Shown here one piece after another: positions 4,174 through 36,035 of a stretch of DNA of 46,650 nucleotides (the stretch's first letter is position 1; the number at the start of each line of letters is the position of its first letter). The position numbers were made by a program, and so were the translations under genes. The stretch is from a virus. Its lineage: Duplodnaviria; Caudoviricetes. The stretch is from the IMG/VR virus record IMGVR_UViG_3300042814_000019, positions 1 to 46,650 of that record; one strand, 5' to 3'. A model generated the notes under the pieces. It saw nothing but the letters and a program-made list of their open reading frames with translations. It searched no databases and had not been told where the DNA came from.

Positions 4174-4178
4174 CCGGC

Positions 4179-4337: not shown

Positions 4338-4343
4338 CTGTTC

Positions 4344-6341: not shown

Positions 6342-6556
6342 TCACGGAGTACACGATCCGTCATCGCACGCGCGGCGACGTCGGCGGGTTCACGAGTCAG
6401 ACGGAGGCGACAGTGATCGCGCTCCGGATCGGATGGCCGCTCGAGGATTGGGAGATCGAACCCGTCGAGGGCAATGTCGCCGACGTCGCGCCGTTCGCGG
6501 ATCTCCGTCCGTCGCCGACACGTGATCGCGCGCTCGACAGGTGGGCCCGCTCGTGA
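6338..6556 (+). CDS. Hypothetical protein
   Basis: Coupled at both ends (ATGA, GTGA). Confidence 0.65.
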   Translation: MITEYTIRHRTRGDVGGFTSQTEATVIALRIGWPLEDWEIEPVEGNVADVAPFADLRPSPTRDRALDRWARS

Positions 6557-8953: not shown

Positions 8954-9167
8954 CACGGCGGCGATCGTGTTCCCGCGCGTCGGCGCGTTCCCGCACGGGG
9001 CGTACGTCGCTCGATGCCGATGTCTCCCCGACGTCGGCCAGGTTCCGACGACGAACTACCACGGGCACGCGATCGCGGCGCCGACGTGCGGCGGATGCGG
9101 CCGACGTTTCGAGCTCGCGATCGATCTCATGCTCCCGGCGCCGCCGCCGGCGTCGAGGCAACCGTGA
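8943..9167 (+). CDS. Small putative Zn-binding protein
   Basis: CRC...CGGC. Confidence 0.55.
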   Translation: MADSTAAIVFPRVGAFPHGAYVARCRCLPDVGQVPTTNYHGHAIAAPTCGGCGRRFELAIDLMLPAPPPASRQP

Positions 9168-9757
9168 CGCGCACGAGGACGGCGGCGCGTCATTCGATGG
9201 ACTCCCCGGAGTGGTTCACGCCGTCGCCGTACGTCGAGGCGGCGCGCGAGGTGCTCGGCGAGATCGATCTCGATCCGGCATCGCATCGCGAGGCGAACCG
9301 GATCGTCCGCGCCCGCCGGTTCTACACGGAGAAGGGGAACGGACTCCGGCGCCCGTGGTTCGGGCGCGTGTTCATCAACCCGCCAGGCGGCCACGTCGCG
9401 CCGTTCTGGTACCGGCTCATGGTCGCAATCGCCGCGCGCGAGATCACCGCGGCGATCTGGATCGGCTATTCGCTCGAGCAGCTTCAAACGCTCCAGGGGT
9501 ACGAGGTGCGATCCCCGATCCAGTTTCCGATCTGCATTCCGGATCGGCGGATCCCGTTCGTCGAGTCGAGCGCGAAGCGTGAACTCCGGCGCCTGGCGCT
9601 CGTCGAGGAGAACCGCGGGCGCCGCCGCGAGGGGCACGAGCTCAAGCCATGGAAGGAAGCCGCGCAACCGTCACACGCGAACTACATCACGTACATCGGG
9701 CGAGCGCCGGCCCGGTTCGCCCGCGTGTTCGGGGCGTTCGGCGAGGTGCGTCGATGA
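9164..9757 (+). CDS. Phage Dam-like DNA N6-adenine methyltransferase (NPPG variant)
   Basis: EWFTP, IDLDPAS, 'NGL..PWFGRVFINPPGG'. Confidence 0.8.
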   Translation: MTRTRTAARHSMDSPEWFTPSPYVEAAREVLGEIDLDPASHREANRIVRARRFYTEKGNGLRRPWFGRVFINPPGGHVAPFWYRLMVAIAAREITAAIWIGYSLEQLQTLQGYEVRSPIQFPICIPDRRIPFVESSAKRELRRLALVEENRGRRREGHELKPWKEAAQPSHANYITYIGRAPARFARVFGAFGEVRR

Positions 9758-12676: not shown

Positions 12677-13135
12677 ATGGACAAGCAACTCCTCGACGCT
12701 CGCTCGCACGCGGGCGACGGCGACGGCGCCGCCAGGGAGGCGGGCGCCGCGCTCCCGAACCGCGGATCTCAACGGATGTTCTCCGAACTACAGACCGGCG
12801 CCCGGTTCACGTTCGATCACGATGCCGACTCCGGGCACGAGTGGACGAAAACCGGGCGGCGGGAGTACTCGCGGATCTTGACGAAGCGGATCGGGACGCC
12901 GACGGCGCCGGTTACGCCGGTCGCGCCGGTACCGGATGATGAGGGCGACGCCGTCGTGATGCTCCGCAACGTGGCCACCCTGATCAATTCGCTCCGCGCG
13001 ATCGAGCGGATCAAGCGGGACGGAAACGACGTGATCCCGGCGAGCGACGTCGATGAACTCCTCGCGCACTTCGCACGCGGAGGCCTCGACGCCGCCGACG
13101 TCGCGACGATCGAAAAGATCGTAGGTGGACGATGA
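12677..13135 (+). CDS. Hypothetical protein
   Basis: GGAGG RBS, coupled downstream. Confidence 0.65.
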   Translation: MDKQLLDARSHAGDGDGAAREAGAALPNRGSQRMFSELQTGARFTFDHDADSGHEWTKTGRREYSRILTKRIGTPTAPVTPVAPVPDDEGDAVVMLRNVATLINSLRAIERIKRDGNDVIPASDVDELLAHFARGGLDAADVATIEKIVGGR

Positions 13136-14169
13136 CGGCGCCGGCGCTCGTTCCCGCCGACGTCGCGAAGGGCATCGAAACGGCGTGGGGCGCGTTCCTG
13201 GCGCGCTCCGCCCGTCCGCAGACACCACACCCGTACGCCTACGCGTCCGCGTACCGCACGTGCGAGCGGCGGATGGTGTACGAGATGACGCGCCCGGAGA
13301 AACTCCCGCCCTGGCCGCCGGAGGTGCTCGCACGGTTCCGCCGCGGCGATGATCGCGAGCGGGATCTCCTGTCGGATCTCGGGCGCATCGGGCGCGATGC
13401 GGAGCCATCGTTCAGCGTGATCGGCCAACAGGAGTCGTTCAAACTGAAAGATCGCAAGGGGCGCGTCGCGATCTCCGGCAAGGTCGATGCTCGGATCGCG
13501 ATCGCCGGCGCGCGGCCGCCGCTCGAGGTCAAGGCGTGGTCGCCGATGATGGTCGACCGGATCGAGACGTTCGCGGATCTGTTCGACAACCCATGGACAC
13601 GATCCGGCGCTCACCAATTGCTCGCGTACTTGTGGGGCGCCGGCGAACCGTTCGGGTTCCTCCTCCTCGACCGCAGCGGGATCCCGAAACTCCTCCCCGT
13701 GGAACTCGACGCGCACGTCGACCGGATGGAGGATTTCCTCGCGCGCGCCGAACGGGCGATCGATCACGTCGAGGCGAAAACGCTCCCGTCGTTCCTTGAA
13801 GGCGACGCCGCGGAGTGTAAGCGTTGCGCGTGGTACGGCACGGAGTGTAATCCGCCGCTCATCGCGAAGGGCGCCGTCGTGCTCACCGATCCGGAGCTAC
13901 AGAAGCGGCTCGCCAGGCGCGACGAGCTCGAGGCCGGCGCGAAGGAATTCGACAAGCTCGACAAACAGATCAAGGGCGAACTCCGCGGGATCGAGGAGGG
14001 GATCGCGGGTCCGTTCGTGATCAACGGCAAGTGGCAAAAGAAAACGACGACCGATCTCCCCGCCGACGTGAAAAAGCAGTACACGACGACCGATCCGAAA
14101 GGGTCATTCCGGATCGAGATCGTCCGGCTCGATGGACCGGCGGCGCCGCCGGAGGAGAAAACCGCATGA
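13132..14169 (+). CDS. Cas4-like PD-(D/E)xK exonuclease
   Basis: CERR; SGKVD...LEVK; HQLLAY; CKRCAWYGTEC (4-Cys Fe-S pattern). Confidence 0.85.
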   Translation: MTAPALVPADVAKGIETAWGAFLARSARPQTPHPYAYASAYRTCERRMVYEMTRPEKLPPWPPEVLARFRRGDDRERDLLSDLGRIGRDAEPSFSVIGQQESFKLKDRKGRVAISGKVDARIAIAGARPPLEVKAWSPMMVDRIETFADLFDNPWTRSGAHQLLAYLWGAGEPFGFLLLDRSGIPKLLPVELDAHVDRMEDFLARAERAIDHVEAKTLPSFLEGDAAECKRCAWYGTECNPPLIAKGAVVLTDPELQKRLARRDELEAGAKEFDKLDKQIKGELRGIEEGIAGPFVINGKWQKKTTTDLPADVKKQYTTTDPKGSFRIEIVRLDGPAAPPEEKTA

Positions 14170-14242
14170 TGAAGTACATAGTCGTCCCGCTCGAGGCGAT
14201 CCGGATCGTGCTCGAAATGATCGGCCTGCGGCGGCGGGCGTA

Positions 14243-14983
14243 GTGGCGAAGGACAGCGCGATCGGCTGGACGGATCACACGTTCAACCCATGGTGGGGAT
14301 GCGTCGAGGTGTCGCCGGCGTGTGATGAATGCTACGCCCGGAAATTCGCGAACCGTCTCGGGTACCCGTGGGGCGCGCACGCGCCGCGGCGGTTCTTCGC
14401 CGATCACCATTGGCGCGAGCCTCTCAACTGGAACGCGGCCGCCGTGCGCGACGGGAAACGCGCTCGCGTGTTCTGTGCGTCGATGGCCGACGTTTTCGAG
14501 GTGCGCGAGGATCTCGACGACTCGCGGCGCCGACTGTGGGAACTGATCGAGGCAACGCCCGCGCTCGATTGGCTCCTCCTCACGAAGCGCGCCCGCGAGA
14601 TCCGGCGGATGGTCCCGGCGGCCTGGCTCGAGGCGCCGCTCGCGCACGTCTGGTACGGAACGACGGTCGAGGGGCCCGACTACTTGTGGCGGCTCGAGGA
14701 ACTCCGGCGCGTTCCCGCGGCGCTCCGGTTTATCTCGTACGAACCGGCGCTCGCCGACGTGACGTGGCCGCTCGACGGGATCGACTGGCTCATCGCGGGC
14801 GGCGAAAGCTCGCCCGGGTTCCGCCCGCCCGATCCGGACTGGATCCGATCGTCACGCGATCAGGCGCTCGCCGCCGGCGTCGCGTTCTACTTCAAACAAT
14901 GGGGAGGACTCAGACCGACCAGCAAGGGGAACCTCCTCGACGGGCGCGAGTGGCGCCAGGTTCCCCGCTACGCGACCGCGTGA
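14243..14983 (+). CDS. DUF5131 (phage Gp37/Gp68) family protein
   Basis: IGWTDHTFNPWWGC..VSPACDECYA; LLTKR; SYEP; WLIAGGES; FKQWGG. Confidence 0.92.
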   Translation: MAKDSAIGWTDHTFNPWWGCVEVSPACDECYARKFANRLGYPWGAHAPRRFFADHHWREPLNWNAAAVRDGKRARVFCASMADVFEVREDLDDSRRRLWELIEATPALDWLLLTKRAREIRRMVPAAWLEAPLAHVWYGTTVEGPDYLWRLEELRRVPAALRFISYEPALADVTWPLDGIDWLIAGGESSPGFRPPDPDWIRSSRDQALAAGVAFYFKQWGGLRPTSKGNLLDGREWRQVPRYATA

Positions 14984-17843: not shown

Positions 17844-18380
17844 GTGAGCACGTTCGATCTCTACCCTGTCGAAAAACATTGGTGGTCGTTCACCGACTAC
17901 CGCGCCGTCCTCGACACGGTTCGCCGCCTGGGCGCGCGGCGCGTTCTGGAATTCGGGCCAGGTTCCTCGACGCTCGCGCTCGTCGAGGGCGGCGCCGATC
18001 AGATCGACACGTGCGAGGACGATCCGAAGTGGTACGACGTTCACCGCTCCCGCGTGGGACGGCAATTCGCGCCGGTCGTTACCGTTCACCGCTACACCTG
18101 GGCGGATCCGCTGTCGATCCCTGAGCTCGACGCCAGGCGCTACGATCTCGCGCTCATCGACGGGCCGCACGATACGCCGCGGCGGCCCGTCGTCCTCGAC
18201 TACTGCATGGCGCGATGTTCCGCCGTGTTGATCCCGACGGAGGATTACAAGGTGTCGTCGCCGCCGCTCCGCCCTCACATTCACCGCGTCGCGGCGGAGT
18301 ACGGCGCCGCCCTCGAGATATGGGACACGGGTCCGACGTCGGGATCGTTCGCGCTCCTGATGAACGAGTCGCGCTCGTGA
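17844..18380 (+). CDS. Class I SAM-dependent methyltransferase (small-molecule/glycan type)
   Basis: VLEFGPGSST; acidic residue after strand 2 (CEDD); YDLALIDGP. Confidence 0.85.
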   Translation: MSTFDLYPVEKHWWSFTDYRAVLDTVRRLGARRVLEFGPGSSTLALVEGGADQIDTCEDDPKWYDVHRSRVGRQFAPVVTVHRYTWADPLSIPELDARRYDLALIDGPHDTPRRPVVLDYCMARCSAVLIPTEDYKVSSPPLRPHIHRVAAEYGAALEIWDTGPTSGSFALLMNESRS

Positions 18381-22825: not shown

Positions 22826-23382
22826 GCAAACGCCGCGGCAAGACCAAACCCAAAGGCAAGCGGAAACCCGCGGAGCCCGTCGAGGGGCCCATGTCGATCG
22901 CCGCGTTCGCTCGCGACAGGAACGTCGACGAGAAGGCCATCCGCAAGGGGATCGCGTCCGAACGGATCCCGCCCTCGTGCGTCGGACTCTCGAGCACCGG
23001 GCGCCGCCAAGTGATCACCGACGTCGCCGCCGCGCGCGCCGCGTGGGATGCGAACGCCGCCCGGGTTCCCAACGGTCCCGCCGTCGATGCCGGTCGCTCG
23101 TCGCTCGTCGAGGCGTCGACGCTCACGGCAATGGAGCGCCATCGGCGCCTCAAGATCGACAACGATCTCCGCGAGGGCCTGGCGCTCAGTGTTCCCGCGG
23201 CGAAGCGTGAGGCGTTTGAAAGCTACCGCACGATCCGCGATACCCTCCTGAACGTGTCGGCCCGATACGCGGAGGAGCTCGCCGTGATCACCGATCCCGC
23301 GGAACTCCGCCGGCGCCTCGACGCGATCATCCGCGAGGCGCTCGGCGAATGTGCGGATCGACTCGAGGCGAGCGGGGAGTGA
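22822..23382 (+). CDS. terS: Terminase small subunit (Nu1-like)
   Basis: N-terminal wHTH (SIAAFARDRNVDEKAIRK), coiled coil, directly upstream of TerL. Confidence 0.75.
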   Translation: MSKRRGKTKPKGKRKPAEPVEGPMSIAAFARDRNVDEKAIRKGIASERIPPSCVGLSSTGRRQVITDVAAARAAWDANAARVPNGPAVDAGRSSLVEASTLTAMERHRRLKIDNDLREGLALSVPAAKREAFESYRTIRDTLLNVSARYAEELAVITDPAELRRRLDAIIREALGECADRLEASGE

Positions 23383-25454
23383 GCGACGCCGCCGCCGTCC
23401 GCGTGATCCGCCAGGCGCGGGCCGACGGCATCCGTCCGGAGCGCGTGCTCACCGTGTCGCAATGGGCCGACGAGAAGCGACGGCTCCCGAAGAAGTCGAG
23501 CGCGGAGTCCGGGCCCTGGCGCACCGACCGCACGCCGTACCTCCGCGAGATCATGGACAACTTTTCGTCGACGTCCGACGTCGAGGAAACCGTGTTCATG
23601 AAAGCCTCGCAGATCGGCGGGACGGAGGTTCTCCTGAACGCGCTCGGCTACATCATCGATCACGCGCCCGGGCCCGTGATCATCGTGTGGCCGACGGACG
23701 GCACGGCGAAACGGAACTCCCGTCAACGCGTCGGGCCGCTCACGACGGACACGCCCGCGATCGCGGAGAAGGTCGCGCCGGTCAAGTCCCGCGACTCGAC
23801 GAACACCGTCCTCGAGAAGTCGTTCCCCGGCGGGCACCTCGTGATCGCGGGCGCGAACTCCGCGAACGGTTTGAAGTCGATGCCGGCGCAGTACGCGCTC
23901 ATGGACGAACTCGACGGCTGGCCAATCGACGTCGATGAGGAGGGATCGCCGATCGCGCTCGTCGAGGTGCGACAACGCACGTTCTCCCGTCGGAAGCGAC
24001 TCAAGATCTCGTCGCCGTCGATTGCGGGGCGCTCGGCGATCGAGGCCGCGCACGATCGCGGCGATGCGCGCCGGTTCTTCGTCCCGTGTCCGATCTGTTC
24101 AGAATTTCAGGAACTCACGTTCGACCGGATCGTCTGGACGAAGCTCGGACTCCCGCCGGCCGCCGCCGTGTACGAGTGTGCGGGATGCGGCGGGTACATC
24201 CGCAATCATCAAAAAACGGCAATGCTCGCCGCGGGCGAATGGCGCGCGACACACCCGGGCCGCGGCGGCGGGAAGATCCGGAGCTATCACCTCAACGCCC
24301 TGTACGCGCCGGTCGGTTGGATCTCCTGGGGCGAGATCGCCGTCGATTTCGTCGCGAGCGAAAAGGATCCGGAGAAGCTCCGCGTTTTCATCAATACGAT
24401 CTTGGGCCAGGTGTGGACGTCGAAGGGCGAGGCGCCTGAATGGGAATCGCTCTACAACCGGCGCGACACGTACGCGATCGGGACCGTTCCCCGCGGCGCG
24501 CTCGTACTCACGTGCGGCGTCGACGTGCAGAAGGAACGGCTCGTATACGAGGTCGTCGGATGGGGCCGCGGGAAATCCTCATGGTCGATCGACGCGGGCG
24601 AGATCCCCGGCGATCCCGCCGACATGGAACGGGGTCCGTGGGGCGAACTCGAAAAACTGACGGCGCGATTGTTCCCGCACGAAAGCGGGATCGAGATGCC
24701 GATCCGATTGCTCGCGATCGACTCCGGGTATCAGGATCAACCCGTTCACGCGTGGGTCCGGCGCCCGCACTCGACGCAAGTGATCGCCGTGAAGGGTTTC
24801 GAGTACGGCGGCGCGATCATCGGATCACCGAAGCCGGTCGAAGTCATGATCAGCGGGAAGAAACGGAAGCGAGGCGGGCGCGTCTGGCCGGTCAGCACCT
24901 CGATCGCGAAAACGGAATTCTACGGGTTCCTTCGTCTCGAGCGTGAACCGAACAAACCGGATCCCGCCGGCTACGTTCGATATCCGGAGTACGGCGAGGA
25001 GTGGTTCAAACAGATCACCGCGGAGCAACTCACGGCGACGAAAACCCGCCGCGGGTACATCCGGCTCGAGTGGTCGGTCCTCGCCGGTCGCCAGAATCAC
25101 GCGCTCGACTGTCGCGTCTACGCGCGCGCCGCCGCCGCGCTCGCCGGCCTCGACCGGATGAACGACCGCGATTGGGACGCCCGCGAGAAATTCCTGGGAC
25201 TCCACCAAACGCCCGCCGCCGCCGCCGCGGACGCCGCCGCCGACGCTCGAGCGCGCCGCCCTGGCACGCCGCCGGCGCCCGCCCAGGAGGCGGCGACGTC
25301 GAGCTCGACGCCACCCGCCGCGCCGGCGCCGCTCCGCCCGGGACTCCGCCCGCGTCCGGCGCCCGCCGCGCCGCCGACGCCCGCGGCGCCCAGGAAACCG
25401 GCGCCGCCCGCCTGGGTTCCGTCGCGTCCCGGCTGGCTCAAGCCTCGGTCGTAG
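23379..25454 (+). CDS. terL: Terminase large subunit, lambda gpA family
   Basis: GPWRTDRTPYLREIMD; MKASQIGGTE (Walker A); LMDELD (Walker B); CPIC/CAGC; GVDVQ; NHALDC. Confidence 0.97.
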   Translation: MSDAAAVRVIRQARADGIRPERVLTVSQWADEKRRLPKKSSAESGPWRTDRTPYLREIMDNFSSTSDVEETVFMKASQIGGTEVLLNALGYIIDHAPGPVIIVWPTDGTAKRNSRQRVGPLTTDTPAIAEKVAPVKSRDSTNTVLEKSFPGGHLVIAGANSANGLKSMPAQYALMDELDGWPIDVDEEGSPIALVEVRQRTFSRRKRLKISSPSIAGRSAIEAAHDRGDARRFFVPCPICSEFQELTFDRIVWTKLGLPPAAAVYECAGCGGYIRNHQKTAMLAAGEWRATHPGRGGGKIRSYHLNALYAPVGWISWGEIAVDFVASEKDPEKLRVFINTILGQVWTSKGEAPEWESLYNRRDTYAIGTVPRGALVLTCGVDVQKERLVYEVVGWGRGKSSWSIDAGEIPGDPADMERGPWGELEKLTARLFPHESGIEMPIRLLAIDSGYQDQPVHAWVRRPHSTQVIAVKGFEYGGAIIGSPKPVEVMISGKKRKRGGRVWPVSTSIAKTEFYGFLRLEREPNKPDPAGYVRYPEYGEEWFKQITAEQLTATKTRRGYIRLEWSVLAGRQNHALDCRVYARAAAALAGLDRMNDRDWDAREKFLGLHQTPAAAAADAAADARARRPGTPPAPAQEAATSSSTPPAAPAPLRPGLRPRPAPAAPPTPAAPRKPAPPAWVPSRPGWLKPRS

Positions 25455-25691: not shown

Positions 25692-25901
25692 ATGCCGTGG
25701 ACACAGACCGACGCCGACAACCTACGCCGCGCAATCGCCGACGGCCGCGGCGCCCGGTCGATGTCATTCGGCGATCAGACGGTTGTGTTCAACTCGCTCA
25801 AGGAAATGATCGAGCTCCTCGCCATCATGGAAACCGACGCCGCGACGACCGCGGGCACCCGTCGCGCGTACCGTGTGGCCGTCACGAGCAAAGGCGTTTA
25901 G
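25692..25901 (+). CDS. gpW-like head-tail joining protein
   Basis: WTQTD.D.L..AIA.G...F.D.TV.F.S..EM...SKG pattern; position after TerL. Confidence 0.8.
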   Translation: MPWTQTDADNLRRAIADGRGARSMSFGDQTVVFNSLKEMIELLAIMETDAATTAGTRRAYRVAVTSKGV

Positions 25902-25919: not shown

Positions 25920-26654
25920 ATGGCCGCGCCGCTCCTCGCCGCCGTCTACTTCGGATCCGGCGCCGCGGGCGACGATTTCCGCCGCCTGGCGAACGTCCTC
26001 GAGTATTCGGCGCGACGTCACGCGCCGGCCTGGCGCCTCGACGTCCGACACGTTCCGCCCGCGACCGGCTACCGCTCAACGCTCGGCGTTCCCGCTCATG
26101 AGAACAATTCCGCGAAGCTCGATCACTGGCGCGACGTGATCGCGAGCGCCGCCGACGGCGACCGCGTGCTCCTCATCGACGCCGACACGATGATCACCGG
26201 GTCACTCGATGACGCGTGGGATCGCTCGTTTGATCTCGCGTACACGACCGCGGCGGATCGGCTCCCGCTGAACGCCGGCGTCGTGTTCGTGAACGTGTCG
26301 GATCGCTCGCGCGGGTTCCTCGAGCAATGGGCCGCCGTGAACCGGAGTTTCCTCGGCGATGCGAACGCGCTCCGGCCCTGGCGCAATCGGTACGCGGGGA
26401 TCAATCAGGCGGCGCTCGGGTTCATGCTCGAGCGCGCCGGCCACGGATGCCAGGTCGAGCGGCTCGACGGCGTGATCTGGAATTGCGAGGACTCCAATTG
26501 GCGCCGGTTCGATCCCGACGTCACGCGGATCGTTCACGTGAAGTCGGATCTCCGGCGGGCGATCCTCCGCGGGCACTCGCGGCCGGCGCTCGCGAACATC
26601 GTCACCGCCTGGCACGCCGTCGAGGCCAGCGTGAAAGCAGAGGCCAGGACATGA
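25920..26654 (+). CDS. GT-A fold glycosyltransferase (nucleotide-diphospho-sugar transferase)
   Basis: K..W...VLLIDAD (DxD); LNAGVVF; NQAAL; WN; IVHVK. Confidence 0.85.
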   Translation: MAAPLLAAVYFGSGAAGDDFRRLANVLEYSARRHAPAWRLDVRHVPPATGYRSTLGVPAHENNSAKLDHWRDVIASAADGDRVLLIDADTMITGSLDDAWDRSFDLAYTTAADRLPLNAGVVFVNVSDRSRGFLEQWAAVNRSFLGDANALRPWRNRYAGINQAALGFMLERAGHGCQVERLDGVIWNCEDSNWRRFDPDVTRIVHVKSDLRRAILRGHSRPALANIVTAWHAVEASVKAEART

Positions 26655-28309
26655 CGGCGCCGCTCGTGAGCGTGATTATCCCGACGCACAATCACGCGCA
26701 CGTGATCGGCGAGGCGATCGCGAGCGTGCTCGAGCAGACCGTTCCCGTCGAGGTCATCGTGATCGATGACGGCTCGACCGACTCGACGCCCGACGCGCTC
26801 GCCGGCTACACGGACACGCGGGTCCGCTCGATCCGTCAGCAGCAAAGCGGGCCCTCCGCGGCGCGGAACCTCGGGATCGAGATGGCGCGCGGGGCGTTCG
26901 TGATGTTCCTCGACGCCGACGACGTCATCGCGCCGGAGAAGCTCGAGACGCAACTCCGGGCGTTCGATGCGACGGTCGGTTGGGTTCTGTGCGACGTCGA
27001 GATCAGGGACGCCGCCAAGCACCGAACGATCAACGCGTCGGCGCAATACCGATACGACCGGCTCGATCTCGGCGGATGGATCGCGCCGATCCTCCGAAAC
27101 GGGAACGTGATCCCGATCATGTCGCCGCTCGTGCGACGGTCAACGATCGGCGCGCTCCGGTTCGATGATGCAAAGGTTCCGGAGGACTGGTATTTCTGGA
27201 TCGCGATCGCGGAGGCGGCGCGATGCCGGTACGTTCCGGAGGTGCTCGCGACCTATCGACACGGGATCACCGGGCGCTCGCGGCTCCCGAAGTCGGCGCG
27301 CCTGGCGCATCACGGGATCCGCTCGCCGCTCCGGCTCAATCTCGGATGCGGCAACCCGGCGGATCGCTCCTGGCACCCGCTCGACGGGTTCGTGAATCTC
27401 GACAAGGCGCTCGGTTGGAAGTTTGAACACGGCCTCGGCGAATTCGCGAACGGGACCGTCGCGGGGATCACGATCTCGCACGCGCTCATGTACCTCGCGG
27501 CGCCCGCCTGGCCGACGTTCGTCGATGAGCTCGCCCGCGTGCTCGAGCCTGGCGGCGTGGTTCGGATCACGGAGGACGCGACCGACGACCGGCGATCCCG
27601 ATCGTTCGGCGGATGGAAGGGATCGCAACCGGCGATCACGCTCACGACGCCGGCGTTCGTCCGCGAGCACCTGGCGGCCGCGGCGTTCGACGTCGCCGAT
27701 GTCACGCCGGAGGAGACGCGGTTCCGCGACGGCTCGCTCCGGCAACGGTTCCACGGCGATCCGCCTGATGTCTTTTTCGTCGAGGGCGTCAAGCGGAACG
27801 CGATCCTATTCGCGCCGCACGCCGACGACGAGACGCTATTCGCGGCGTTCACCCTGCAACGCGCCCGCCCGCGGATCGTGATCTGTTTTCCGTCCGTGCG
27901 CGACTACGGCGACACGTACCACCGGGCGGAGGAGTCGCGCCAGGCGGCCGCCATCCTGGGCGCCGGGCCCGTCGTGCAATGGCAGGGCGGCGATCTCGCG
28001 GCGCGGATGCGCGAGCTCGTCGAGGCGCACGGCGCGCCGTCGGAAGTGTGGGCGCCGTCGGCGAACGCATCGCACGCGGATCACGTGGCCGTCGCCGCCG
28101 CGGCGCTCGAGGTGTTCGGCGCCGACGTCCGGAGGTACCAGACGTATCAGGGCGAGGAGCGGGTCCGCGAGGGCCGCGAGGTTCCGCCGCCGACGCCCGC
28201 GGCGATCGAGCGGAAGATCCGCGCGCTCGCGTGCTACACCTCGCAACTCACGCACCCGCGGAGCTCGGCGTTCTTTCTCCACGATCAACGGGAGTACGAG
28301 GAATGCTAA
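26651..28309 (+). CDS. Fusion of GT2 glycosyltransferase, SAM methyltransferase and PIG-L/LmbE-type deacetylase
   Basis: VSVIIPTHN, IDDGSTD, SAARNLG, FLDADD, EDW (GT2); LNLGCG...RVLEPGG (MTase); APHADDETL...HADH (PIG-L). Confidence 0.9.
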   Translation: MTAPLVSVIIPTHNHAHVIGEAIASVLEQTVPVEVIVIDDGSTDSTPDALAGYTDTRVRSIRQQQSGPSAARNLGIEMARGAFVMFLDADDVIAPEKLETQLRAFDATVGWVLCDVEIRDAAKHRTINASAQYRYDRLDLGGWIAPILRNGNVIPIMSPLVRRSTIGALRFDDAKVPEDWYFWIAIAEAARCRYVPEVLATYRHGITGRSRLPKSARLAHHGIRSPLRLNLGCGNPADRSWHPLDGFVNLDKALGWKFEHGLGEFANGTVAGITISHALMYLAAPAWPTFVDELARVLEPGGVVRITEDATDDRRSRSFGGWKGSQPAITLTTPAFVREHLAAAAFDVADVTPEETRFRDGSLRQRFHGDPPDVFFVEGVKRNAILFAPHADDETLFAAFTLQRARPRIVICFPSVRDYGDTYHRAEESRQAAAILGAGPVVQWQGGDLAARMRELVEAHGAPSEVWAPSANASHADHVAVAAAALEVFGADVRRYQTYQGEERVREGREVPPPTPAAIERKIRALACYTSQLTHPRSSAFFLHDQREYEEC

Positions 28310-29007
28310 CGGTCCTAACGTGGAAGTGGGGCGCGAAGTTTTCCGCCCGTCACGTGAACACGCTCCGCTCGATGCTCGCGCGCCGGCTCGCGCTCGAGCA
28401 CCGCGTCGTGTGCGTCACGGATGACGCCGCGGGGATCGACTCCGACGTCGAGACGATCCCGCTCCCTGGTCGACACTCCGACTCGCCGCGATGCCGTCGC
28501 CGTATGCGGGCGTTCGATGCGACGTGGGCCCGCGGGATCGGCGAGCGGATCCTCGCGCTCGATCTCGACGTCGTGATCACCGACGATCTCACGCCGGTCG
28601 TCGACCGTCCGGATCCGCTCGTGTGCTGGCGCGTCGGGTACGCGGGCGTGTTCTCCGGCTCCGTGATCCTGATGAACGCCGGCGTCCTCGATCCGCTGTG
28701 GCGGGCGTTCGACAAGGATCCCGCCGGCTACGCCAGGCGCGCCTCGCCGCGCGGCGTCGGCAGCGATCAGGCGATGCTCAATTTCTACTTGGGGCAATCG
28801 ACGACGAAGCTCCGGCCCGGCGTGTGGACGGAGGCCGACGGGTTCGTGACGTTCTTCGGCGCGGGATACGAACGGCTCGAGCGCCGCGGCGTAGGGCCTG
28901 GGAATCCGAAGCTCCCGCCAGGCGCGCGGATCGTCGTCCTGGGGAGTGATGATCTCTACGTGCTCGAGCAGGGCGAGCACTATCCATGGATCAGCGAATG
29001 GCGATAG
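28303..29007 (+). CDS. GT-A fold glycosyltransferase-like protein
   Basis: KWG.KF...V..L..M; VCVTDD; LDLDVVI (DxD); SDQ. Confidence 0.8.
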   Translation: MLTVLTWKWGAKFSARHVNTLRSMLARRLALEHRVVCVTDDAAGIDSDVETIPLPGRHSDSPRCRRRMRAFDATWARGIGERILALDLDVVITDDLTPVVDRPDPLVCWRVGYAGVFSGSVILMNAGVLDPLWRAFDKDPAGYARRASPRGVGSDQAMLNFYLGQSTTKLRPGVWTEADGFVTFFGAGYERLERRGVGPGNPKLPPGARIVVLGSDDLYVLEQGEHYPWISEWR

Positions 29008-29624
29008 AGCTCGTGACGTTCGTTCCGTTCGATCTCGAGGCAAACCTGGGGCGCGCCTACAATCACGCGATGGCGCTCCTCCCGCCGGACGCCTGGGCGG
29101 TTCTGTTCGATCACGACGCGATGCCGACGACGCGGGAATGGTACCGGCAGATCACCGAAGTGATCGAGCACCGGCCCGACGTCGGACTACTCACGGCGAC
29201 GACGAACCGGATCGCGTCGCCGTGGCAGCGCGCCGCGGAGTCCGATCTGAACAATCACGACATGGCGTATCACCGGAAGCTCGGCGCCGCGCGCCTCGAG
29301 CGCCGGACGCTCCTCGACGTCACCGACACGAAGGGCCTCGGCGGCGTGCTCATGGTGCTGTCGAGGCGAACCTGGGAACGCGTCGGCGGGTTCGTCGACG
29401 GAATGCTCTGTGTCGATCACATGATGCACTTCGCCGTCGCGCGCGCAGGCCTCAGGGTCTACGTCGTCGATAGTCTGTACGTCTACCATTGGCGCCGCGC
29501 ACACGGCGACGAACTCCCGGCCAGCGTGCCAAAGGCCAAACGCTGTCCATGTCGAGGGCCTGAACCGACGCCGACGCGGCGGATCCCGATCGTTCCGGAA
29601 GGGGCAACGAATGAGACTCGATAG
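28998..29624 (+). CDS. GT2-like glycosyltransferase
   Basis: NLGRAYN; FDHDA (DxD); W..VGGF; VD; YVYH. Confidence 0.8.
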   Translation: MAIELVTFVPFDLEANLGRAYNHAMALLPPDAWAVLFDHDAMPTTREWYRQITEVIEHRPDVGLLTATTNRIASPWQRAAESDLNNHDMAYHRKLGAARLERRTLLDVTDTKGLGGVLMVLSRRTWERVGGFVDGMLCVDHMMHFAVARAGLRVYVVDSLYVYHWRRAHGDELPASVPKAKRCPCRGPEPTPTRRIPIVPEGATNETR

Positions 29625-31200
29625 AATCGATCCCGAACCCGCTCGGCGGCGCCGCACGTTCGGCGATCACCTCGACACGATCACCGCGCCGATCGCGCCG
29701 CGATGGACGCTGAACCGGCAGCGCGCCCGCTACGCCGGCGAGATTCTCAAGCGACATTACGAGGGCGCCGCGACGACGGCGCGGACGCAGAATTGGCGCA
29801 AGCCTGGGACCGATGCGAACGCCGCCGTCGGTCCCGCGGCGGCGAACCTCCGGAACGCCGTCCGCGATCTCATTCGCAACAATCCGTACGCCGCCGCGTC
29901 GCTCGCGTCGATCGTGAACGAGGCGATCGGTTGGGGGATCGTGGCGGAGTCGCCGAACGCCCGGGCGATGAAACTCTGGCGGAAGTGGGCGGAGTCGAAG
30001 GCGTGCGACGCGAACGGCGTTCACGATATCTACGGACTGCAAAAGCTCGTCCTCCGTGCGACCGCGCAGGATGGCGAGGTGCTCGTTCGTCGGCGGTTCC
30101 GGCTCCCGTCCGACGGACTCCCGATCCCCGTGCAATTGCAAGTCCTCGAGATCGATCACCTCGACACGACGAAGGATCAGATCACGACGCCGAACGGCGG
30201 GCAGATCGTTCAAGGGATCGAGTTTTCCCCGATTGGCGAGCGGGTCGCGTACTGGCTGTTCAAGGAACACCCGGGCAGCATCCGCGGATCGTACGCGCCG
30301 TCGGTTCGGATCCCGGCGGAGGGCGTGCGTCACATATTCCGCGGCGAACGTCCCGGCCAGGTGCGCGCCGTCTCGTGGTACGCGCCCTCGCTCCTCGCGT
30401 GGAAGGATCTCGACGACTACGACGACGCGACGCTCGTGAAGCAAAAGATCGCGGCGTGCCTGGCCGTGTTCGTGCGCGACGATCTCGACGGCGGCGGCGC
30501 GCCGCTCGGCGAACCGAACGACGTCCCGACGCCGGCGATCGACACGCTCACGCCCGGAATGGTGCAGAACCTCCCGGCCGGTCGTCAGATCTCCGTCGTC
30601 GAGCCTCCGCGCGTGAACGATTTCGGCGAGTACATGGATCGAAAGCTCCGCGGACTCGCGAGCGGGCTCCGGGTTCTGTTCTCGAGCATGACCGGGGATT
30701 TCCGCGATCTCTCGTTCTCGGCCGCCAGGATGGAGCGGATCGCGCATCAACCCGACGTCGACGACAACCGATGGCGTCTCCTGATCCCTGGGTTCTGTGA
30801 TCCGGCCTGGGAGTGGGCGATGACGGCGGCCGCGATCGCCGGACTCCTCCCGTCGGCGGAGGTTCCCGACGTCGAGTGGACGCCGCCGCCGCTCGCGTTC
30901 ATCGATCCGGCGAGCGAGGGCCTCGCGATCCTCCGGAACGTGCGCGCAGGGATCACGACGATGCAGGAGGAGCTCCGCGCCCGCGGATTGAACCCGGTCA
31001 AAGTGATCGGGGAAATGAAGGCGTGGAACGCGCTCCTCGACAAGGCCGGCGTCGTGCTCGACAGCGATCCGCGTCGGATGACTCAGGCGGGCATGGCGCA
31101 AAGCGCGATCACGCCCGCGGCGCCGGCTACGCCCGCGGCGCCCGCGGAACCGGCGGCGCCGTCGGAACCCGCGGCGGAGGGCGACGGGGAGGACACGTAA
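29611..31200 (+). CDS. Portal protein, lambda family
   Basis: RDLIRNNPYA; DGEV; VQGIEF...GERVAYW; RPGQVR; SFSAAR; IDP..E. Confidence 0.95.
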   Translation: MRLDRIDPEPARRRRTFGDHLDTITAPIAPRWTLNRQRARYAGEILKRHYEGAATTARTQNWRKPGTDANAAVGPAAANLRNAVRDLIRNNPYAAASLASIVNEAIGWGIVAESPNARAMKLWRKWAESKACDANGVHDIYGLQKLVLRATAQDGEVLVRRRFRLPSDGLPIPVQLQVLEIDHLDTTKDQITTPNGGQIVQGIEFSPIGERVAYWLFKEHPGSIRGSYAPSVRIPAEGVRHIFRGERPGQVRAVSWYAPSLLAWKDLDDYDDATLVKQKIAACLAVFVRDDLDGGGAPLGEPNDVPTPAIDTLTPGMVQNLPAGRQISVVEPPRVNDFGEYMDRKLRGLASGLRVLFSSMTGDFRDLSFSAARMERIAHQPDVDDNRWRLLIPGFCDPAWEWAMTAAAIAGLLPSAEVPDVEWTPPPLAFIDPASEGLAILRNVRAGITTMQEELRARGLNPVKVIGEMKAWNALLDKAGVVLDSDPRRMTQAGMAQSAITPAAPATPAAPAEPAAPSEPAAEGDGEDT

Positions 31201-31204
31201 CGTC

Positions 31205-31435
31205 ATGGGCGACGACCGGATCGTTCAGTGGCCGGATGATCGTCCGCACCGTCGAGGGGCGCCGTCGCTCGAGGCCGCCGTCTCGCCGGCGTGGCTCGCG
31301 TCTCGATGGGGCGTGAACGTGCAAACGATCTACCGCGACATCCGGAAGGGCGCCCTCCGCGCCTACCGGCTCCCGGGCGGAGATCTTCGCATCCGGATCC
31401 GCGATGCGCGCTCGTACGGAAAGCCGGTCGAGTGA
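31205..31435 (+). CDS. Excisionase/MerR-like winged-HTH DNA-binding protein
   Basis: SPAWLASRWGVNVQTIYRDIRKGALRAYRLPGGDLRI. Confidence 0.8.
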   Translation: MGDDRIVQWPDDRPHRRGAPSLEAAVSPAWLASRWGVNVQTIYRDIRKGALRAYRLPGGDLRIRIRDARSYGKPVE

Positions 31436-31507
31436 CTGGCTTTTCGTGATCGTTCGCGGCGGTAGTCACTAGACGCCGCCGCGGCCCCTCCGGCATCCTG
31501 TCGCATC

Positions 31508-33508
31508 ATGTCGCGAGCGGCAACCGGCCAAACGATCGACGTTCCTCCGCTCTCACTCCTCGCCCGTGCCAACGTTGAAACCGTGAACGAGGCGGATCGC
31601 TCCGTCGAGCTCACGTTCTCGACCGGCGCGCCAGTCGAGCGGTACGACTGGATGAAGGACACGCGGTATCTCGAGGCGCTCGAGATCTCGAAAAAGGCGA
31701 TCCGCGTCGGACGCCTGAACACGGCGCCGCTCCTCGACGCGCATTCCGCGTGGTCGATCACCGATCAGATCGGGACGGTCGTCGCCGGTTCATTCCGGAT
31801 CGACGGCACCGACGCGATCGTTCGCGTCCGGTTCTCCGCACGCGAGGCCGTCGCGGGGATCTGGCAGGACGTGAAGGATCGGATCATCCAGAACGTCAGC
31901 GTCGGATATCGCGTTCACAAATTCGAGGAGGACGCGACCGGCGCGATCCCCGTTCGTACGGCCGTCGATTGGGAACCGTACGAGGTGTCAATGGTCCCGA
32001 TGCCGGCCGACGTCGGCGCTCGCGTTCGCAATCACGAGATCGCGACGAATTCCTGTCTCATCATCCGCAAGGAGAGTACCGTGGCTGATCCCGCTCGCCC
32101 GTCCACCGTCGCCGAAGATCCCGCCGTCGTCGCGCTCCGTCTCACCGACGGCGCGCCTGGCGCCCGGCCCGCAGCGGCGCCCGCGGCGGAACCGACGGCC
32201 GCCGACGCCGCTCGCGCAAACGAAACCGCTCGCGTCCAGGGCATCATCACCGCCGCCCGCGGCGGGCGGATGCCGGCCACGTTCGCCGACGATCACATCG
32301 CGCGCGGGACGGCGCTCGAGGAGGTATCGCGGCTCGTGTTCGTCGAGCTCCAGGCGCGGAACGAGCAGACGCGCGGCCCGCAGCCCGGGCCCTCGATCGC
32401 GCTCGGCGAGGATCCGCTCGTTCACGTGCGAACGTCGATCATGGGCGCCCTCTGTCACCGCGTCGCGCCGTCGTTCTTCAAGCTCGAGGATCAGCACCGG
32501 CCGTACCGCGGCCTCACGCTCCTCGACACGGCGCGGGCGTATCTCCACGCCGCCGGCGTGCGAACGTCCGGCATGTCGAAGATGGAGCTCGCCGCGGCGG
32601 CGCTCGGACTCGATCAGCGTGGCGGCCACGGCTACCACACGACGAGCGATTTCGCGTTCCTCCTGGCCGACGTCGCGAACAAGACGATCCGCCGTGCCTA
32701 CGACGAGGCGCCGCAGACGTTCAAGACGATCGCGCGCCAGGTCAACCTCCCCGATTTCAAGCCGGTCTACCGTACGCAGATGGGAGACGCGCCGGCGTTG
32801 CTCGAGGTCAAGGAACACGGCGAATTCAAGCGGGGCACCATCGGCGAGGCGCGCGAGCAGTTTCAACTCGTGACGTACGGCCGCGTGTTCGCCATCACGC
32901 GCAAGGCGCTCGTGAACGACGACGCCGACGCGTTCGGGCGCGTCCCGACGATGTTCGGCCGTGCGGCGCGGACGCTCGAAAGCGATCTCGTGTGGGATCA
33001 GATCACGAGCAATCCCGTGATGGGCGACGGAAACGCCCTGTTCTCGGCGGCTCACCTGAACCTCGACGCGACCGGCGCGGAGATCGACGTCGATTCGCTC
33101 GGCGATGCGCGCGCGGCGATGCGCCAGCAGGTTTCGCTCGACGGCGAGCGGCTGAACATCGCGCCGAAGTACCTCCTCGTCGGGACCGCGCTCGAAACCC
33201 GCGGCGACTCGATCGTCGTCCCGATCACGCCGAACACGTTCACCCAGGTGAACCCGTTCTCCGGCAAGCTCACGGTCGTCGCGGAACCGCGGCTCGATGA
33301 GGAACCGCTCGCGTGGTACCTCGCCGCGGATCCCGCGCAGATCGACATCATCGAGTACGGGTTCCTCGAGGGCGAGGAAGGGCCGCAGATCGAGACGCGG
33401 ATCGGGTTCGACGTCGACGGCATCGAGATCAAGTGTCGCGAGGATTTCGCGGCCAAGGTGCTCGACTGGCGCGGACTCTACAAGAACGTCGGTCACGAAC
33501 ACTCGTAG
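31508..33508 (+). CDS. Prohead protease-major capsid fusion protein
   Basis: PLLDAH, VSVGY, WEPYEVSMV..PAD (HK97-type protease); HTTSDF, DFKP, E.GEFK, TYGR.F.ITR.ALVNDD, DWRGLYK (capsid). Confidence 0.95.
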   Translation: MSRAATGQTIDVPPLSLLARANVETVNEADRSVELTFSTGAPVERYDWMKDTRYLEALEISKKAIRVGRLNTAPLLDAHSAWSITDQIGTVVAGSFRIDGTDAIVRVRFSAREAVAGIWQDVKDRIIQNVSVGYRVHKFEEDATGAIPVRTAVDWEPYEVSMVPMPADVGARVRNHEIATNSCLIIRKESTVADPARPSTVAEDPAVVALRLTDGAPGARPAAAPAAEPTAADAARANETARVQGIITAARGGRMPATFADDHIARGTALEEVSRLVFVELQARNEQTRGPQPGPSIALGEDPLVHVRTSIMGALCHRVAPSFFKLEDQHRPYRGLTLLDTARAYLHAAGVRTSGMSKMELAAAALGLDQRGGHGYHTTSDFAFLLADVANKTIRRAYDEAPQTFKTIARQVNLPDFKPVYRTQMGDAPALLEVKEHGEFKRGTIGEAREQFQLVTYGRVFAITRKALVNDDADAFGRVPTMFGRAARTLESDLVWDQITSNPVMGDGNALFSAAHLNLDATGAEIDVDSLGDARAAMRQQVSLDGERLNIAPKYLLVGTALETRGDSIVVPITPNTFTQVNPFSGKLTVVAEPRLDEEPLAWYLAADPAQIDIIEYGFLEGEEGPQIETRIGFDVDGIEIKCREDFAAKVLDWRGLYKNVGHEHS

Positions 33509-33516
33509 CCGGCGCG

Positions 33517-33552
33517 CGGCGTCGGCAGGACTCGCCGACGCCGTCGTTTTCT
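33517..33552 (+). terminator. Rho-independent terminator after capsid gene
   Basis: CGGCGTCGGC / GCCGACGCCG stem followed by TCGTTTTCT. Confidence 0.7.
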
Positions 33553-33586
33553 CTCTCGGTCGATCAAACGTTCAGGAGATCAGGCG

Positions 33587-33943
33587 ATGAAGAATTTCGT
33601 TCAGCCCGGGGAGTCGGTCGAATTCACGGCGCCGTCGGGCGGCGTGACGTCCGGCGTCGGCGTCCAGATCGGTCAGTTTTTCTGTATCGCGACGATCACG
33701 GCCGCGGTCGGCGTGCGGTTCAATGGCTTGTGCGAGGGCGTCGTGACGCACGCCAAGCCGGGATCGCAGGCCTGGGCGGAGGGCGCCGCGATCTTCTGGG
33801 ATGAGGGCGCGAAGCTCATGACGACCGTGTCGTCGGGCAACCTCCAGATCGGCGTCGCCACGGTCGCCGTCGGCGCGGGCGCCGGCGAAACGACCGGAAC
33901 CGTTCGGCTCGACGGCGTCGGCCGCGCGCACGACGGAACGTAA
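33587..33943 (+). CDS. DUF2190-family capsid cement/decoration protein
   Basis: MKNFVQPG...APSGGV.SG...W..G..IFWD...VRLDG. Confidence 0.85.
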   Translation: MKNFVQPGESVEFTAPSGGVTSGVGVQIGQFFCIATITAAVGVRFNGLCEGVVTHAKPGSQAWAEGAAIFWDEGAKLMTTVSSGNLQIGVATVAVGAGAGETTGTVRLDGVGRAHDGT

Positions 33944-33958
33944 TCGGGGGATCGCCCG

Positions 33959-34345
33959 ATGGATCTCTCGTCGCTCCGTGCGCTCGTTCGGAACCTGAAT
34001 TTCTCCGCGCACGGAGTCGACGCGACCATCGAGTCGGATCCGCCTGGCGTGTTCGACACCATCGCGACGCGCGGAATTTGGGTAACGCCCGACACGGAGA
34101 ACGTTCCGGGCGTCCTCGAGCTCCGCCGTCGCGAACGTTCGTACATCCTGGCCGTTCCGCTCCTCGACGTCCCGCACGGTTCGATCGTGCACGCGCCGGC
34201 CTCGCCAATGTGGGCAGATCTGATCGTCCCGCCGCCCTCGCCTGGCGAGGTGCTCCGATGGACGGTCGACGGGTTCGACGCCATCGAACCCGATCACACG
34301 CGGCTCCGGCTTGTCCTGGCGCCGCTCGAGGATGAGGAGACATGA
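33959..34345 (+). CDS. Putative head-tail joining protein
   Basis: Size and synteny only. Confidence 0.5.
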   Translation: MDLSSLRALVRNLNFSAHGVDATIESDPPGVFDTIATRGIWVTPDTENVPGVLELRRRERSYILAVPLLDVPHGSIVHAPASPMWADLIVPPPSPGEVLRWTVDGFDAIEPDHTRLRLVLAPLEDEET

Positions 34346-34818
34346 TCACGACGACGCGCCGACTCCTGATCCTCCTCCGCCTGGGTCAACTCCTGTCGGT
34401 CATCACGAAGGCGAACGGGTTCACCACGGATGCCGGCCTCAAGATCTACATCGGCGCCGCGCCGGAACTCTCGAGCGCGGATCCCGATGACGCGATCGCC
34501 ATCGTCCCGCGTGATGATCTCCCGACGGAATCCGGGTACCAGTGGACGAAACTCCCGGTCGAGATCCAGGCGATCGGGAAAGCCTCCGTCGAGGACGCAT
34601 GGACGGCGCTCGAGGTGCTCCTGGGCGCCGTGAAGATCGCCGTCGAGGTTCCGGATCGGACGCTCGGCTCGCTCCTCAAGGGCGACATGACGCGAGGCGC
34701 GACGCGGGTCGTCGAGCGCCCGCCAGGTTCCCCGACGATCGGCCTGGGCGTGATCTATGTCTGTTCGTACGTCGAGCCATGGGGCAACCCGACGATCGGC
34801 GTCGAGGAGGACACGTAA
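34342..34818 (+). CDS. Putative tail terminator
   Basis: L..IT.ANGF.TD.G N-terminus; synteny. Confidence 0.55.
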   Translation: MITTTRRLLILLRLGQLLSVITKANGFTTDAGLKIYIGAAPELSSADPDDAIAIVPRDDLPTESGYQWTKLPVEIQAIGKASVEDAWTALEVLLGAVKIAVEVPDRTLGSLLKGDMTRGATRVVERPPGSPTIGLGVIYVCSYVEPWGNPTIGVEEDT

Positions 34819-34819
34819 G

Positions 34820-35401
34820 GTGCTCGCGATCCAATTCCGCACCGACTCGCCCGCCGCCGTCGCGAAGCTCCGCGCGAAAGCGCCAGTCGCGATCGCCCGG
34901 GCGTTGAACCGCTCGATCGCGTCGGCGCAAACGGTCATGCTCCGCGTGATCTCGTCGGATCTGAAAGTGAAGATCGGGGATCTCCGCGACAAGGTCCGCA
35001 TACAGGAGGCGACGCCGTCGCTCCACCGCGCCAGGATCTACGCGAGCGCGAAGCGGATCCCGCTGATCGATTTCGGGGCGAAGGGACCGGAACCGTCACG
35101 AGGCCGCGGCCGCGGCGTGACGGCGAAACTCGGAGGCGGCCGCTCGCGGTACCCGAACGCGTTCATCGCGAAGATGAGCAGCGGACACCGCGGCGTGTTC
35201 ACCCGGGCGGCGAAGGGGAGCACGGAAACCCGCGGGCGGAAGCGGACGCCGATCCGCGAACTGTTCGGCCCGTCGATCGCGCACGTGTTCCAAAAGAACG
35301 AGGCCGTCGGCCTGGCTCGCGCTCAGGAGCAACTCGCGAAGAACCTGAAATCTGAATTCCGTTTCGTTCTCTCAATCGAGGGCACGGCGGCCGCCGCGTA
35401 G
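34820..35401 (+). CDS. gpZ-like minor tail/neck protein
   Basis: AIARALNR; AFIA.M.SGHRGVF.R; PI.ELFGPSI. Confidence 0.75.
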   Translation: MLAIQFRTDSPAAVAKLRAKAPVAIARALNRSIASAQTVMLRVISSDLKVKIGDLRDKVRIQEATPSLHRARIYASAKRIPLIDFGAKGPEPSRGRGRGVTAKLGGGRSRYPNAFIAKMSSGHRGVFTRAAKGSTETRGRKRTPIRELFGPSIAHVFQKNEAVGLARAQEQLAKNLKSEFRFVLSIEGTAAAA

Positions 35402-35426
35402 GCAATCAATTGGAGGAGCTCACGTC

Positions 35427-36035
35427 ATGAGGAATTCCGCACCGCTCGAGGTAATCGCCGCGCCGTTTACGATGTACGTCGCGCCCGTCGGGACCGCGTT
35501 CCCCGAAGTCGATCAGGATCCGGACTCGAGCGACTGGACACTGGTCGGATCGGCGGGTCCGCTGAACTACGACGAAGCGGGGATCAACGTCGAGCACTCG
35601 CAGTCGATGGCGTTCTGGCGCTCGCTCGGCGATGCCGGATCCCGTAAGGTGTTCCGGTCGAGCGAGGATCTCAAGATGGGTCTTTTGCTCGTCGACGTCA
35701 CGCCCGAACAGTACTCGTTCGCGCTCAACGGGAACACCGTCACGACGACGCCCGCCGGCGCCGGCGTCCCTGGCACGAAGAAGATCGGACTCTCGCGCGG
35801 GTTCGTCGTCGACACCCGCGCCGTGCTCCTCCGGGGCCCGTCGCCGGAGATGGAGGACGGCGTCATGCAGTACGAGTGTCCGCGCGCCGCGCAGACCGGC
35901 GAACCGAAGCCGGTTTACACGAAGGACAAGCCGGCGATGCTCGCGATCGAGTGGACCGCGCTCGTCGATCCCGGCGCCGCGGATCCGTCGGAGTACTTCG
36001 GTCGGATCGTCGTGCAGACCGCCGACGCGTCGTAA
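35427..36035 (+). CDS. Major tail tube protein
   Basis: YVAPVGT.FP...W..VG pattern; GGAGG RBS; synteny. Confidence 0.75.
   Translation: MRNSAPLEVIAAPFTMYVAPVGTAFPEVDQDPDSSDWTLVGSAGPLNYDEAGINVEHSQSMAFWRSLGDAGSRKVFRSSEDLKMGLLLVDVTPEQYSFALNGNTVTTTPAGAGVPGTKKIGLSRGFVVDTRAVLLRGPSPEMEDGVMQYECPRAAQTGEPKPVYTKDKPAMLAIEWTALVDPGAADPSEYFGRIVVQTADAS

Follow-up and report, generated by a model that had tools for sequence, protein, structure and literature searches.

A phage GT2–methyltransferase–PIG-L protein in a head-gene cassette: a candidate tailor of virion glycans

Results

Positions 26651..28309 (+ strand) of the 46,650-nucleotide (nt) stretch of viral DNA studied here, called the window below (IMG/VR record IMGVR_UViG_3300042814_000019, a 90%-complete record of a lambda-like tailed phage), encode a real chain of 552 amino acids (aa) in which a GT2 glycosyltransferase, a class I S-adenosylmethionine (SAM) methyltransferase and a PIG-L/LmbE de-N-acetylase follow one another, with all three folds and motif sets intact. 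Our data show that viral members of its methyltransferase family lie close to a de-N-acetylase of one or the other of two unrelated folds. By analogy with the rhizobial pair NodB/NodS, this suggests that the methyltransferase N-methylates the amine freed by the deacetylase. While the preliminary description of this DNA named no target for the three activities, our analysis points to virion proteins.

The scan keyed on the methyltransferase returned 31 viral loci, each with a de-N-acetylase within 3 kb (31/31): PIG-L in 25 and the NodB/CE4 fold in six, all six confirmed by Pfam, and never both. The tri-domain family itself accounts for 21 of these loci, and the informative ones are the other 10 (4 PIG-L and 6 NodB-type). 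Neither deacetylase type occurs in any of 50 control loci reached through the GT2 domain only, as judged with profiles made from cassette members, which distant deacetylases may escape. Among 79 metagenome loci, all 15 whose flanks reach 3 kb or more on each side contain a de-N-acetylase (11 PIG-L, 4 NodB-type), and the 64 with shorter flanks divide into 34 with one and 30 with none. On a tree of 44 chosen methyltransferase domains the partner changes between PIG-L and NodB-type at least three times, and fusions of the methyltransferase with PIG-L are seen with either domain first, beside a fusion with DUF2334. It appears that the family depends on the reaction, catalysed by either of two deacetylase folds, rather than on one protein partner, and it is this that argues for N-methylation of the freed amine; NodS is described as methylating NodBC-deacetylated oligomers (PMC11681206). 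Distant members of the methyltransferase family (P0222, P0230, P0231, P0233, P0237, P0250 and P0263) are fused to a GINT1_N (glycoside-hydrolase-like) domain.

The tri-domain protein (P0001) is read in a single stop-free frame and is predicted to be soluble, with no segment of transmembrane strength. A longer open reading frame (ORF) of 660 aa from 26327 was rejected, as it overlaps the upstream gene, and homologues are ~550 aa long with a start equivalent to 26651. The GT2 domain, of GT-A fold (26657..27265, aa 3–205), keeps its DD, DxD and ED motifs; it is followed by a minimal class I SAM methyltransferase domain (27323..27793, aa 225–381) with the family marks LNLGCG (229–234), SHALMY and RITED, and by a minimal BshB/MshB-like PIG-L/LmbE domain of 170 aa (27797..28306) with intact HxDD, RxxE and HxDH motifs (APHADDE at 388–394, HADH at 475–478). 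Pfam detects GT2 (PF00535, aa 7–129, E value 2e-32, 112.9 bits against a cut-off of 23.3) and PIG-L (PF02585, aa 386–488, E value 8e-10, 39.7 bits against 28.2). No methyltransferase is among the top five Pfam rows of the window protein; Methyltransf_11/23/25 matches are precomputed for several homologues, and relatives of the methyltransferase domain score above the Methyltransf_11 cut-off. Modelled alone with AlphaFold 2, this domain takes the class I SAM methyltransferase fold with a predicted local distance difference test score (pLDDT) of 94.9, and its best VIA structure match is 3dli (Z 14.4, root-mean-square deviation 2.2, 135 residues aligned).

The AlphaFold model of the whole chain, a check proposed in the preliminary description for misplaced catalytic residues, has a pLDDT of 91 (57-sequence alignment drawn from 120 listed homologues) and places the catalytic motifs intact in three recognisable folds: GT-A (5hea, Z 25.6), methyltransferase (aa 223–381; 3dli, Z 14.3) and LmbE-like (aa 380–552; 2ixd, Z 18.9). 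Foldseek results for the whole protein are dominated by matches to the GT2 domain. All 120 listed homologues keep D40, D88, D90, E178 and D179 of the GT2 domain, N230, G234, D251, S276 and H277 of the methyltransferase, and H390, D392, D393, R425, H475 and H478 of the deacetylase. Since mean conservation is equal across the domains (0.72, 0.76 and 0.71, respectively), no domain looks decayed. Pfam, folds and invariant residues thus bear out the original observation of three motif sets in one 552-aa frame, and the domain boundaries agree. The top structural matches of the GT2 domain span six donors (Gal, Fuc, GlcA, GalNAc, GlcNAc and Rha), and no NCBIfam equivalog is reached. The closest solved relatives of the deacetylase domain are BC1534, TT1542 and BshB1, with which its metal ligands and catalytic residues line up, although its score for the BshB1 equivalog TIGR04001 (24.1 bits) is below the cut-off of 182.5.

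The gene sits in the run terminase – small gene – GTa – tri-domain gene – GTb – GTc – portal – protease/capsid, all on the + strand. The four cassette genes and the portal gene overlap head to tail, and their G+C content at third codon positions equals that of the structural genes. GTa (25920..26654, 244 aa) is a GT8/GT77-like (Nucleotid_trans) glycosyltransferase: 13 of the 23 members of its family match Nucleotid_trans weakly, and there is a match to the Skp1 galactosyltransferase 6mw5 with an E value of 2.6e-5. GTb (28303..29007, 234 aa, phrog_1962) and GTc (28986..29624, 212 aa, phrog_14179) are glycosyltransferase-like proteins with a DxD motif, neither with a credible solved relative by sequence. 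A putative O-methyltransferase gene, MT24, usually lies directly 3' of the tri-domain gene in relatives; in the sub-lineage of the window it is displaced upstream of the cassette (MT24-like, 17844..18380, +). None of the five cassette proteins contains a transmembrane segment (maximum 19-residue hydropathy 0.9–1.5), and a look for sugar-synthesis genes among the cassette genes found none.

Ser or Thr is the last residue of six virion proteins encoded in the window (portal, capsid, cement protein, tail tube and two head-tail proteins), a hint that their C termini share an acceptor tag. The portal (lambda family, 29611..31200), on the right flank of the cassette, ends in EDT; the protease–major capsid fusion (31508..33508) has a short extension with a terminal Ser (HEHS); the cement protein and two head-tail genes (33587..34818, the latter two at 33959–34345 and 34342–34818) end in Thr; and the tail tube protein (35427..36035) ends in ADAS. 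Capsid and tail tube are the predicted glycan acceptors. Across 29611–36035 the six ends read EDT, EHS, DGT, EET, EDT and DAS; in most of them an acidic residue precedes the terminal one by one or two positions. The close sub-lineage shares these Ser/Thr and acidic C-termini.

The same ends were followed in 80 capsid-homologue loci and 33 tail-tube loci. There are 82 complete capsids, of which 37 could be classified: a Ser/Thr end is present in 18/18 with a cassette gene versus 0/19 with a glycosyltransferase-free stretch from terminase to capsid, and in 14 of the 45 unclassified ones. Capsid tails at cassette loci are mostly 1–3 residues longer, and the residues preceding the terminal Ser/Thr vary freely. 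Tail tubes end in Ser/Thr in 13 of 14 cases with the cassette versus 0/1 without it, and the internal controls do so rarely (terminase 1/9, gpZ 1/15). The gene that tracks the Ser/Thr capsid tail best is GTa. Three loci of close relatives, L237 (3025–5784), L239 and L240, keep GTa and the tail, and there the tri-domain gene, GTb and GTc are swapped for a Methyltransf_11 gene, an unidentified gene and a GT4 gene; this may represent cassette exchange around a fixed initiator. Mycobacteriophage virion proteins are described as glycosylated at their C termini (PMC12619734), and we regard the Ser/Thr tails as a suggestive clue to the acceptor but not as proof.

The terminase large subunit on the left flank (lambda gpA type, 23349..25454, +) has less than 48% identity to any cultured phage. 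Between it and GTa lies a 69-aa gene (25692..25901, +), for which no family match was obtained and which, from its size and position, is presumably a gpW-like head-tail joining protein. Terminase matches are present in 20 of the 21 viral loci that carry the tri-domain family. Nineteen of these 21 loci have the single chain (one cut at a contig end), and in two a GT2–methyltransferase protein is followed by a separate deacetylase gene. Gene order within the cassette varies, while its positions are kept: ahead of the terminase gene, on the stretch from terminase to portal, or on that from portal to capsid. More distant relatives of the deacetylase that stand alone mostly occur where glycosyltransferase and methyltransferase genes are mixed, close to genes for capsid, portal or terminase. 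In about 48 viral loci (L183–L230), from HK97-like, SU10-like and other phages, a stand-alone PIG-L gene lies by head genes among glycosyltransferase and methyltransferase genes, often with DUF6625 3' of the deacetylase. As such clusters belong to unrelated phage types, the tri-domain protein can be seen as one compact representative of a wide group. Phage PIG-L cassettes also often contain an unannotated ~180-aa YxQDDD family (L185:3131–3667, L191:8493–9059, L025:3549–4100 and 14 more), fused to the methyltransferase in L025; it has no Pfam, NCBIfam or PDB match and is probably a GT-A enzyme of small size.

At least 120 full-length homologues (54–100% identity, 98–100% query coverage, matches listed by the protein search) show that the tri-domain protein is neither an artefact nor a rarity. 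With the last two domains alone as the query, 231 proteins were found among 7,998 scored. An assembly-derived fusion, raised in the preliminary description as a possible artefact, is ruled out: homologues occur in many assemblies, and each domain junction is bridged by contigs of runs that are not marked as the source, the one between GT2 and methyltransferase by X6 (27064–27471), the one between methyltransferase and deacetylase by X4 (27476–28097) and X5 (27745–27990). The sole RNA run reaches only a 258-base piece of GTa. None of 50,697 GenBank phage records covers 80% of the tri-domain protein, and the last two domains match nothing there. The original remark that the architecture is unusual thus holds for GenBank phages but not for metagenomes, where at least 120 homologue clusters exist, nor for bacteria, where a cluster of 54 members was found. 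The metagenomes that carry at least half of the 46,650-nt stretch, and the next two, come from soil and freshwater sediment. A GT2-keyed scan of one of 64 parts of the cellular genome contigs gave GT2-domain matches only (79 loci).

Elsewhere in the window, 6541–8538 encodes a 665-aa C5 DNA methylase that contains a long insert; nested within its 5' part, in another frame, is an ORF of 152 aa (6728–7186). A phage N6-adenine methylase-like gene (9014–9757), a Cas4-like nuclease (13132–14169) and a radical SAM mobile pair A-like gene (14132–14983) follow. Two long ORFs in the first 5000 positions (1–5000), at 207–2153 (648 aa) and ~2130–3532, have no Pfam or PHROG match; in a circularly permuted record they would come after the lysis region.

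Discussion

All three domains belong to known families, and glycosyltransferase cassettes in head modules are already known. In the closest parallel, virion O-glycosylation of mycobacteriophages (Corndog gp35–38 of cluster O; Che8 of cluster F1), glycosyltransferases and a methyltransferase likewise lie among head genes; cluster O phages are reported to carry an O-methyltransferase and three glycosyltransferases between portal and protease (PMC4351075). Capsid and tail tube are the proteins modified there (PMC11600133, citing Freeman 2023), at the C terminus as far as these sources describe it (PMC11600133, PMC12619734, PMC11256854), and both proteins of the window end in Ser. Unlike mycobacteriophages, the window phage is lambda-like and comes from soil or sediment, and its cassette contains, in addition, one chain that unites a de-N-acetylase with a linked methyltransferase. 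No mycobacteriophage is among the listed matches or organism tallies of the cassette proteins, in which a few names are hidden. The cultured tailed virus Tetraselmis viridis virus S20 (L510, NC_020840.1) has a nine-gene glycosyltransferase/methyltransferase cluster amid its head genes; it lies between head protease and head closure and includes a GTb homologue with 35% identity, and nothing in it matches the methyltransferase or the deacetylase of the tri-domain protein.

The three predicted activities are those of rhizobial NodC (GT2), NodB (CE4 deacetylase) and NodS (SAM N-methyltransferase), and the six viral relatives of the methyltransferase with a NodB-type partner pair with a true NodB-type deacetylase, as in rhizobia. 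Unlike NodC, however, the GT2 domain of the window is short and soluble and stays far under the NodC cut-off (the matches are in homologues only), and unlike in the Nod system the deacetylase has the PIG-L fold and there are no acyltransferase or export genes. The deacetylase resembles BshB1, BC1534, MshB and TT1542 in fold (Z 14–19) and in the alignment of HxDD, RxxE and HxDH, but differs from these PIG-L/LmbE enzymes in being only 170 aa long, fused and phage-encoded. The same three families occur in one chain in a bacterial GT2 + PIG-L + Methyltransf_25 fusion, the cluster of 54 members mentioned above (ESM Atlas, mostly Actinomycetota); with 724 aa it is longer, and the likeness in domain families (score 0.85) is a lead. 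In phage DLP3, PIG-L is encoded by a gene of its own, close to those for WcaG, WecE, a methyltransferase and a GT4. A search of the literature, with subscription papers and Freeman 2023 with its supplements outside its scope, returned no report of a phage GT2–methyltransferase–deacetylase fusion, of the methyltransferase family with its link to deacetylases, or of a virion glycan that is deacetylated or N-methylated.

We propose that GTa, as candidate chain initiator, attaches the first sugar to the terminal hydroxyl of virion proteins and that GTb, GTc and the GT2 domain would lengthen the chain using host nucleoside diphosphate sugars. The PIG-L domain would then take off an acetyl group, and the methyltransferase would put one to three methyls on the amine, from which a cationic N-methyl-hexosamine would result; O-methylation elsewhere may be the part of MT24, and fusion of the three domains would channel the virion-bound intermediate. 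The logic of transfer, de-N-acetylation and methylation in the preliminary description survives in part: a tie between the methyltransferase and de-N-acetylases of two folds speaks for it, while the structure matches of the GT2 domain do not single out HexNAc as its donor and the chain is one part of a cassette of four to five genes and not a stand-alone assembly line. That the de-N-acetylation step is active is very likely, and the cassette probably tailors a virion O-glycan. N-methylation is somewhat favoured over O-methylation. Taken as a whole, a virion O-glycan tailored by the cassette to a cationic N-methyl-hexosamine falls just short of an even chance.

Several observations weigh against this proposal. 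Structure matches of the methyltransferase are tied among N-, O- and C-methyltransferases and do not name the methyl acceptor; NodS (3ofj) comes only at rank 46 (Z 10.8), tied with dozens of other methyltransferases, and no NodS row is among the Pfam rows shown. The LmbE fold also holds a hydratase, GalB (5cgz), which matches at Z 16.7. Four copies of the methyltransferase, in L462, L484 and L486 and the second copy in L485, lie in apparently cellular contexts with no deacetylase nearby, three of them with short flanks on one side, and many PIG-L cassettes lack this methyltransferase family. The contrast in capsid tails amounts to two changes on the tree and one or two independent pairs, for which a sign test is not significant. 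Among gpE capsids, counted by eye, the Ser/Thr end does not discriminate (15/15 with GTa, 9/10 without), a longer, uncharged end being confined to GTa carriers, and the HK97-like capsid lineage, also counted by eye, lacks the Ser/Thr pattern. Finally, 3 of 10 well-flanked metagenome loci of the tri-domain family (L439, L440 and L447) have no terminase, portal or GTa within 8 kb. In these loci (6895–11966 in L439) the tri-domain cassettes come after tail and GH19 lysin genes or beside dGTP_diPhyd_N or DNA methylase genes.

The virion glycan might be the same with the methyltransferase acting as an O-methyltransferase that caps a sugar hydroxyl independently of the deacetylase, leaving a free amino sugar. 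Proteins that join GT2 to Methyltransf_11 but lack PIG-L are common among bacteria and viruses (several representatives, some possibly truncated), the cluster O cassettes are annotated with an O-methyltransferase (PMC4351075), and the four deacetylase-free copies fit such a cap, on which the fold matches are uninformative. This leaves unexplained, however, why all 31 viral loci have a de-N-acetylase of one of two unrelated folds with repeated switches between them, and the cassette already has a separate O-methyltransferase-like gene in MT24; we consider an O-methyl cap rather unlikely, if a serious contender. Another possibility is that the cassette glycosylates phage DNA after replication, with a sugar on a hydroxylated pyrimidine being deacetylated and methylated as protection against nucleases. 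GT-A DNA glycosyltransferases that add HexNAc are known, with similar DDD and EDY/F motifs and a resemblance to TarP, and some DNA-glycosylation clusters adjoin structural genes (bioRxiv 10.1101/2023.12.21.572611); the window encodes a C5 methylase, and the L439, L440 and L447 cassettes have the DNA-related neighbours just described. The known clusters require a 5-hydroxymethyl or hydroxyl group as a handle (bioRxiv 10.1101/2023.12.21.572611; PMC13326640), but the 90%-complete genome has no match to the thymidylate-synthase-family hydroxymethylases, which the same search found in 10 of 14 controls, and Tet_JBP has none in the window genome and five relatives (three complete), in a search run without a positive control. 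All three domains carry a net charge of –4 to –5, the available text of bioRxiv 10.1101/2023.12.21.572611 does not mention deacetylases, and the Ser/Thr tails would be left unexplained, which makes DNA an improbable target.

Remodelling of a host surface polysaccharide, in serotype conversion or superinfection exclusion, could be expected from the resemblance of the GT2 domain to GtrB-like PHROGs and to TarP/TarS. One relative is a provirus with an integrase, and L499, a bacterial locus for polysaccharide with Wzt and Wzz, also has a member of the methyltransferase family. Against it stand a cassette without any membrane protein (a flippase or membrane transferase of Gtr type), its head-to-tail overlaps inside a late structural run, and the lack of a tyrosine integrase in the window genome and in four of five relatives, so that we hold a host-surface role to be distinctly improbable. 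Synthesis of a small amino-sugar metabolite is hardly plausible. It would follow bacillithiol or mycothiol synthesis, where a transferase and a BshB/MshB deacetylase would be joined by a methyltransferase, and has in its favour the closest solved deacetylases and the weak TIGR04001 match. That match is far under the cut-off, the transferase is a GT2 whereas BshA and MshA are GT4 enzymes, no cysteine ligase was seen, and three further glycosyltransferases and the position in the head module would be left unexplained.

Proof of virion glycosylation exists for a few mycobacteriophages, and the usual discussion treats it as shielding from antibodies. That soil and sediment phages conserve a cassette in which a deacetylase is coupled with a methyltransferase implies that phages adjust the charge on their particle surface. 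Such tuning has a bearing on how particles adsorb to minerals and biofilms, how they resist proteases, glycosidases and grazers, and how they fare against capsid-sensing defences. More tentatively, we suggest a widespread class of soil and sediment phages that may use Nod-factor-like chemistry to coat capsid and tail tube with a glycan of permanently cationic N-methyl- to N-trimethyl-hexosamine via an encoded C-terminal Ser/Thr tag, the tri-domain chain being its compact form. The proposed activity would supply the first substrate for an uncharacterised methyltransferase family and a compact enzyme for N-methyl amino sugars. The system can be studied without the host, as four small soluble genes plus a C-terminal peptide of capsid or tail tube. 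If our reading is true, cassette and tag would form a portable cytoplasmic system for C-terminal protein glycosylation.

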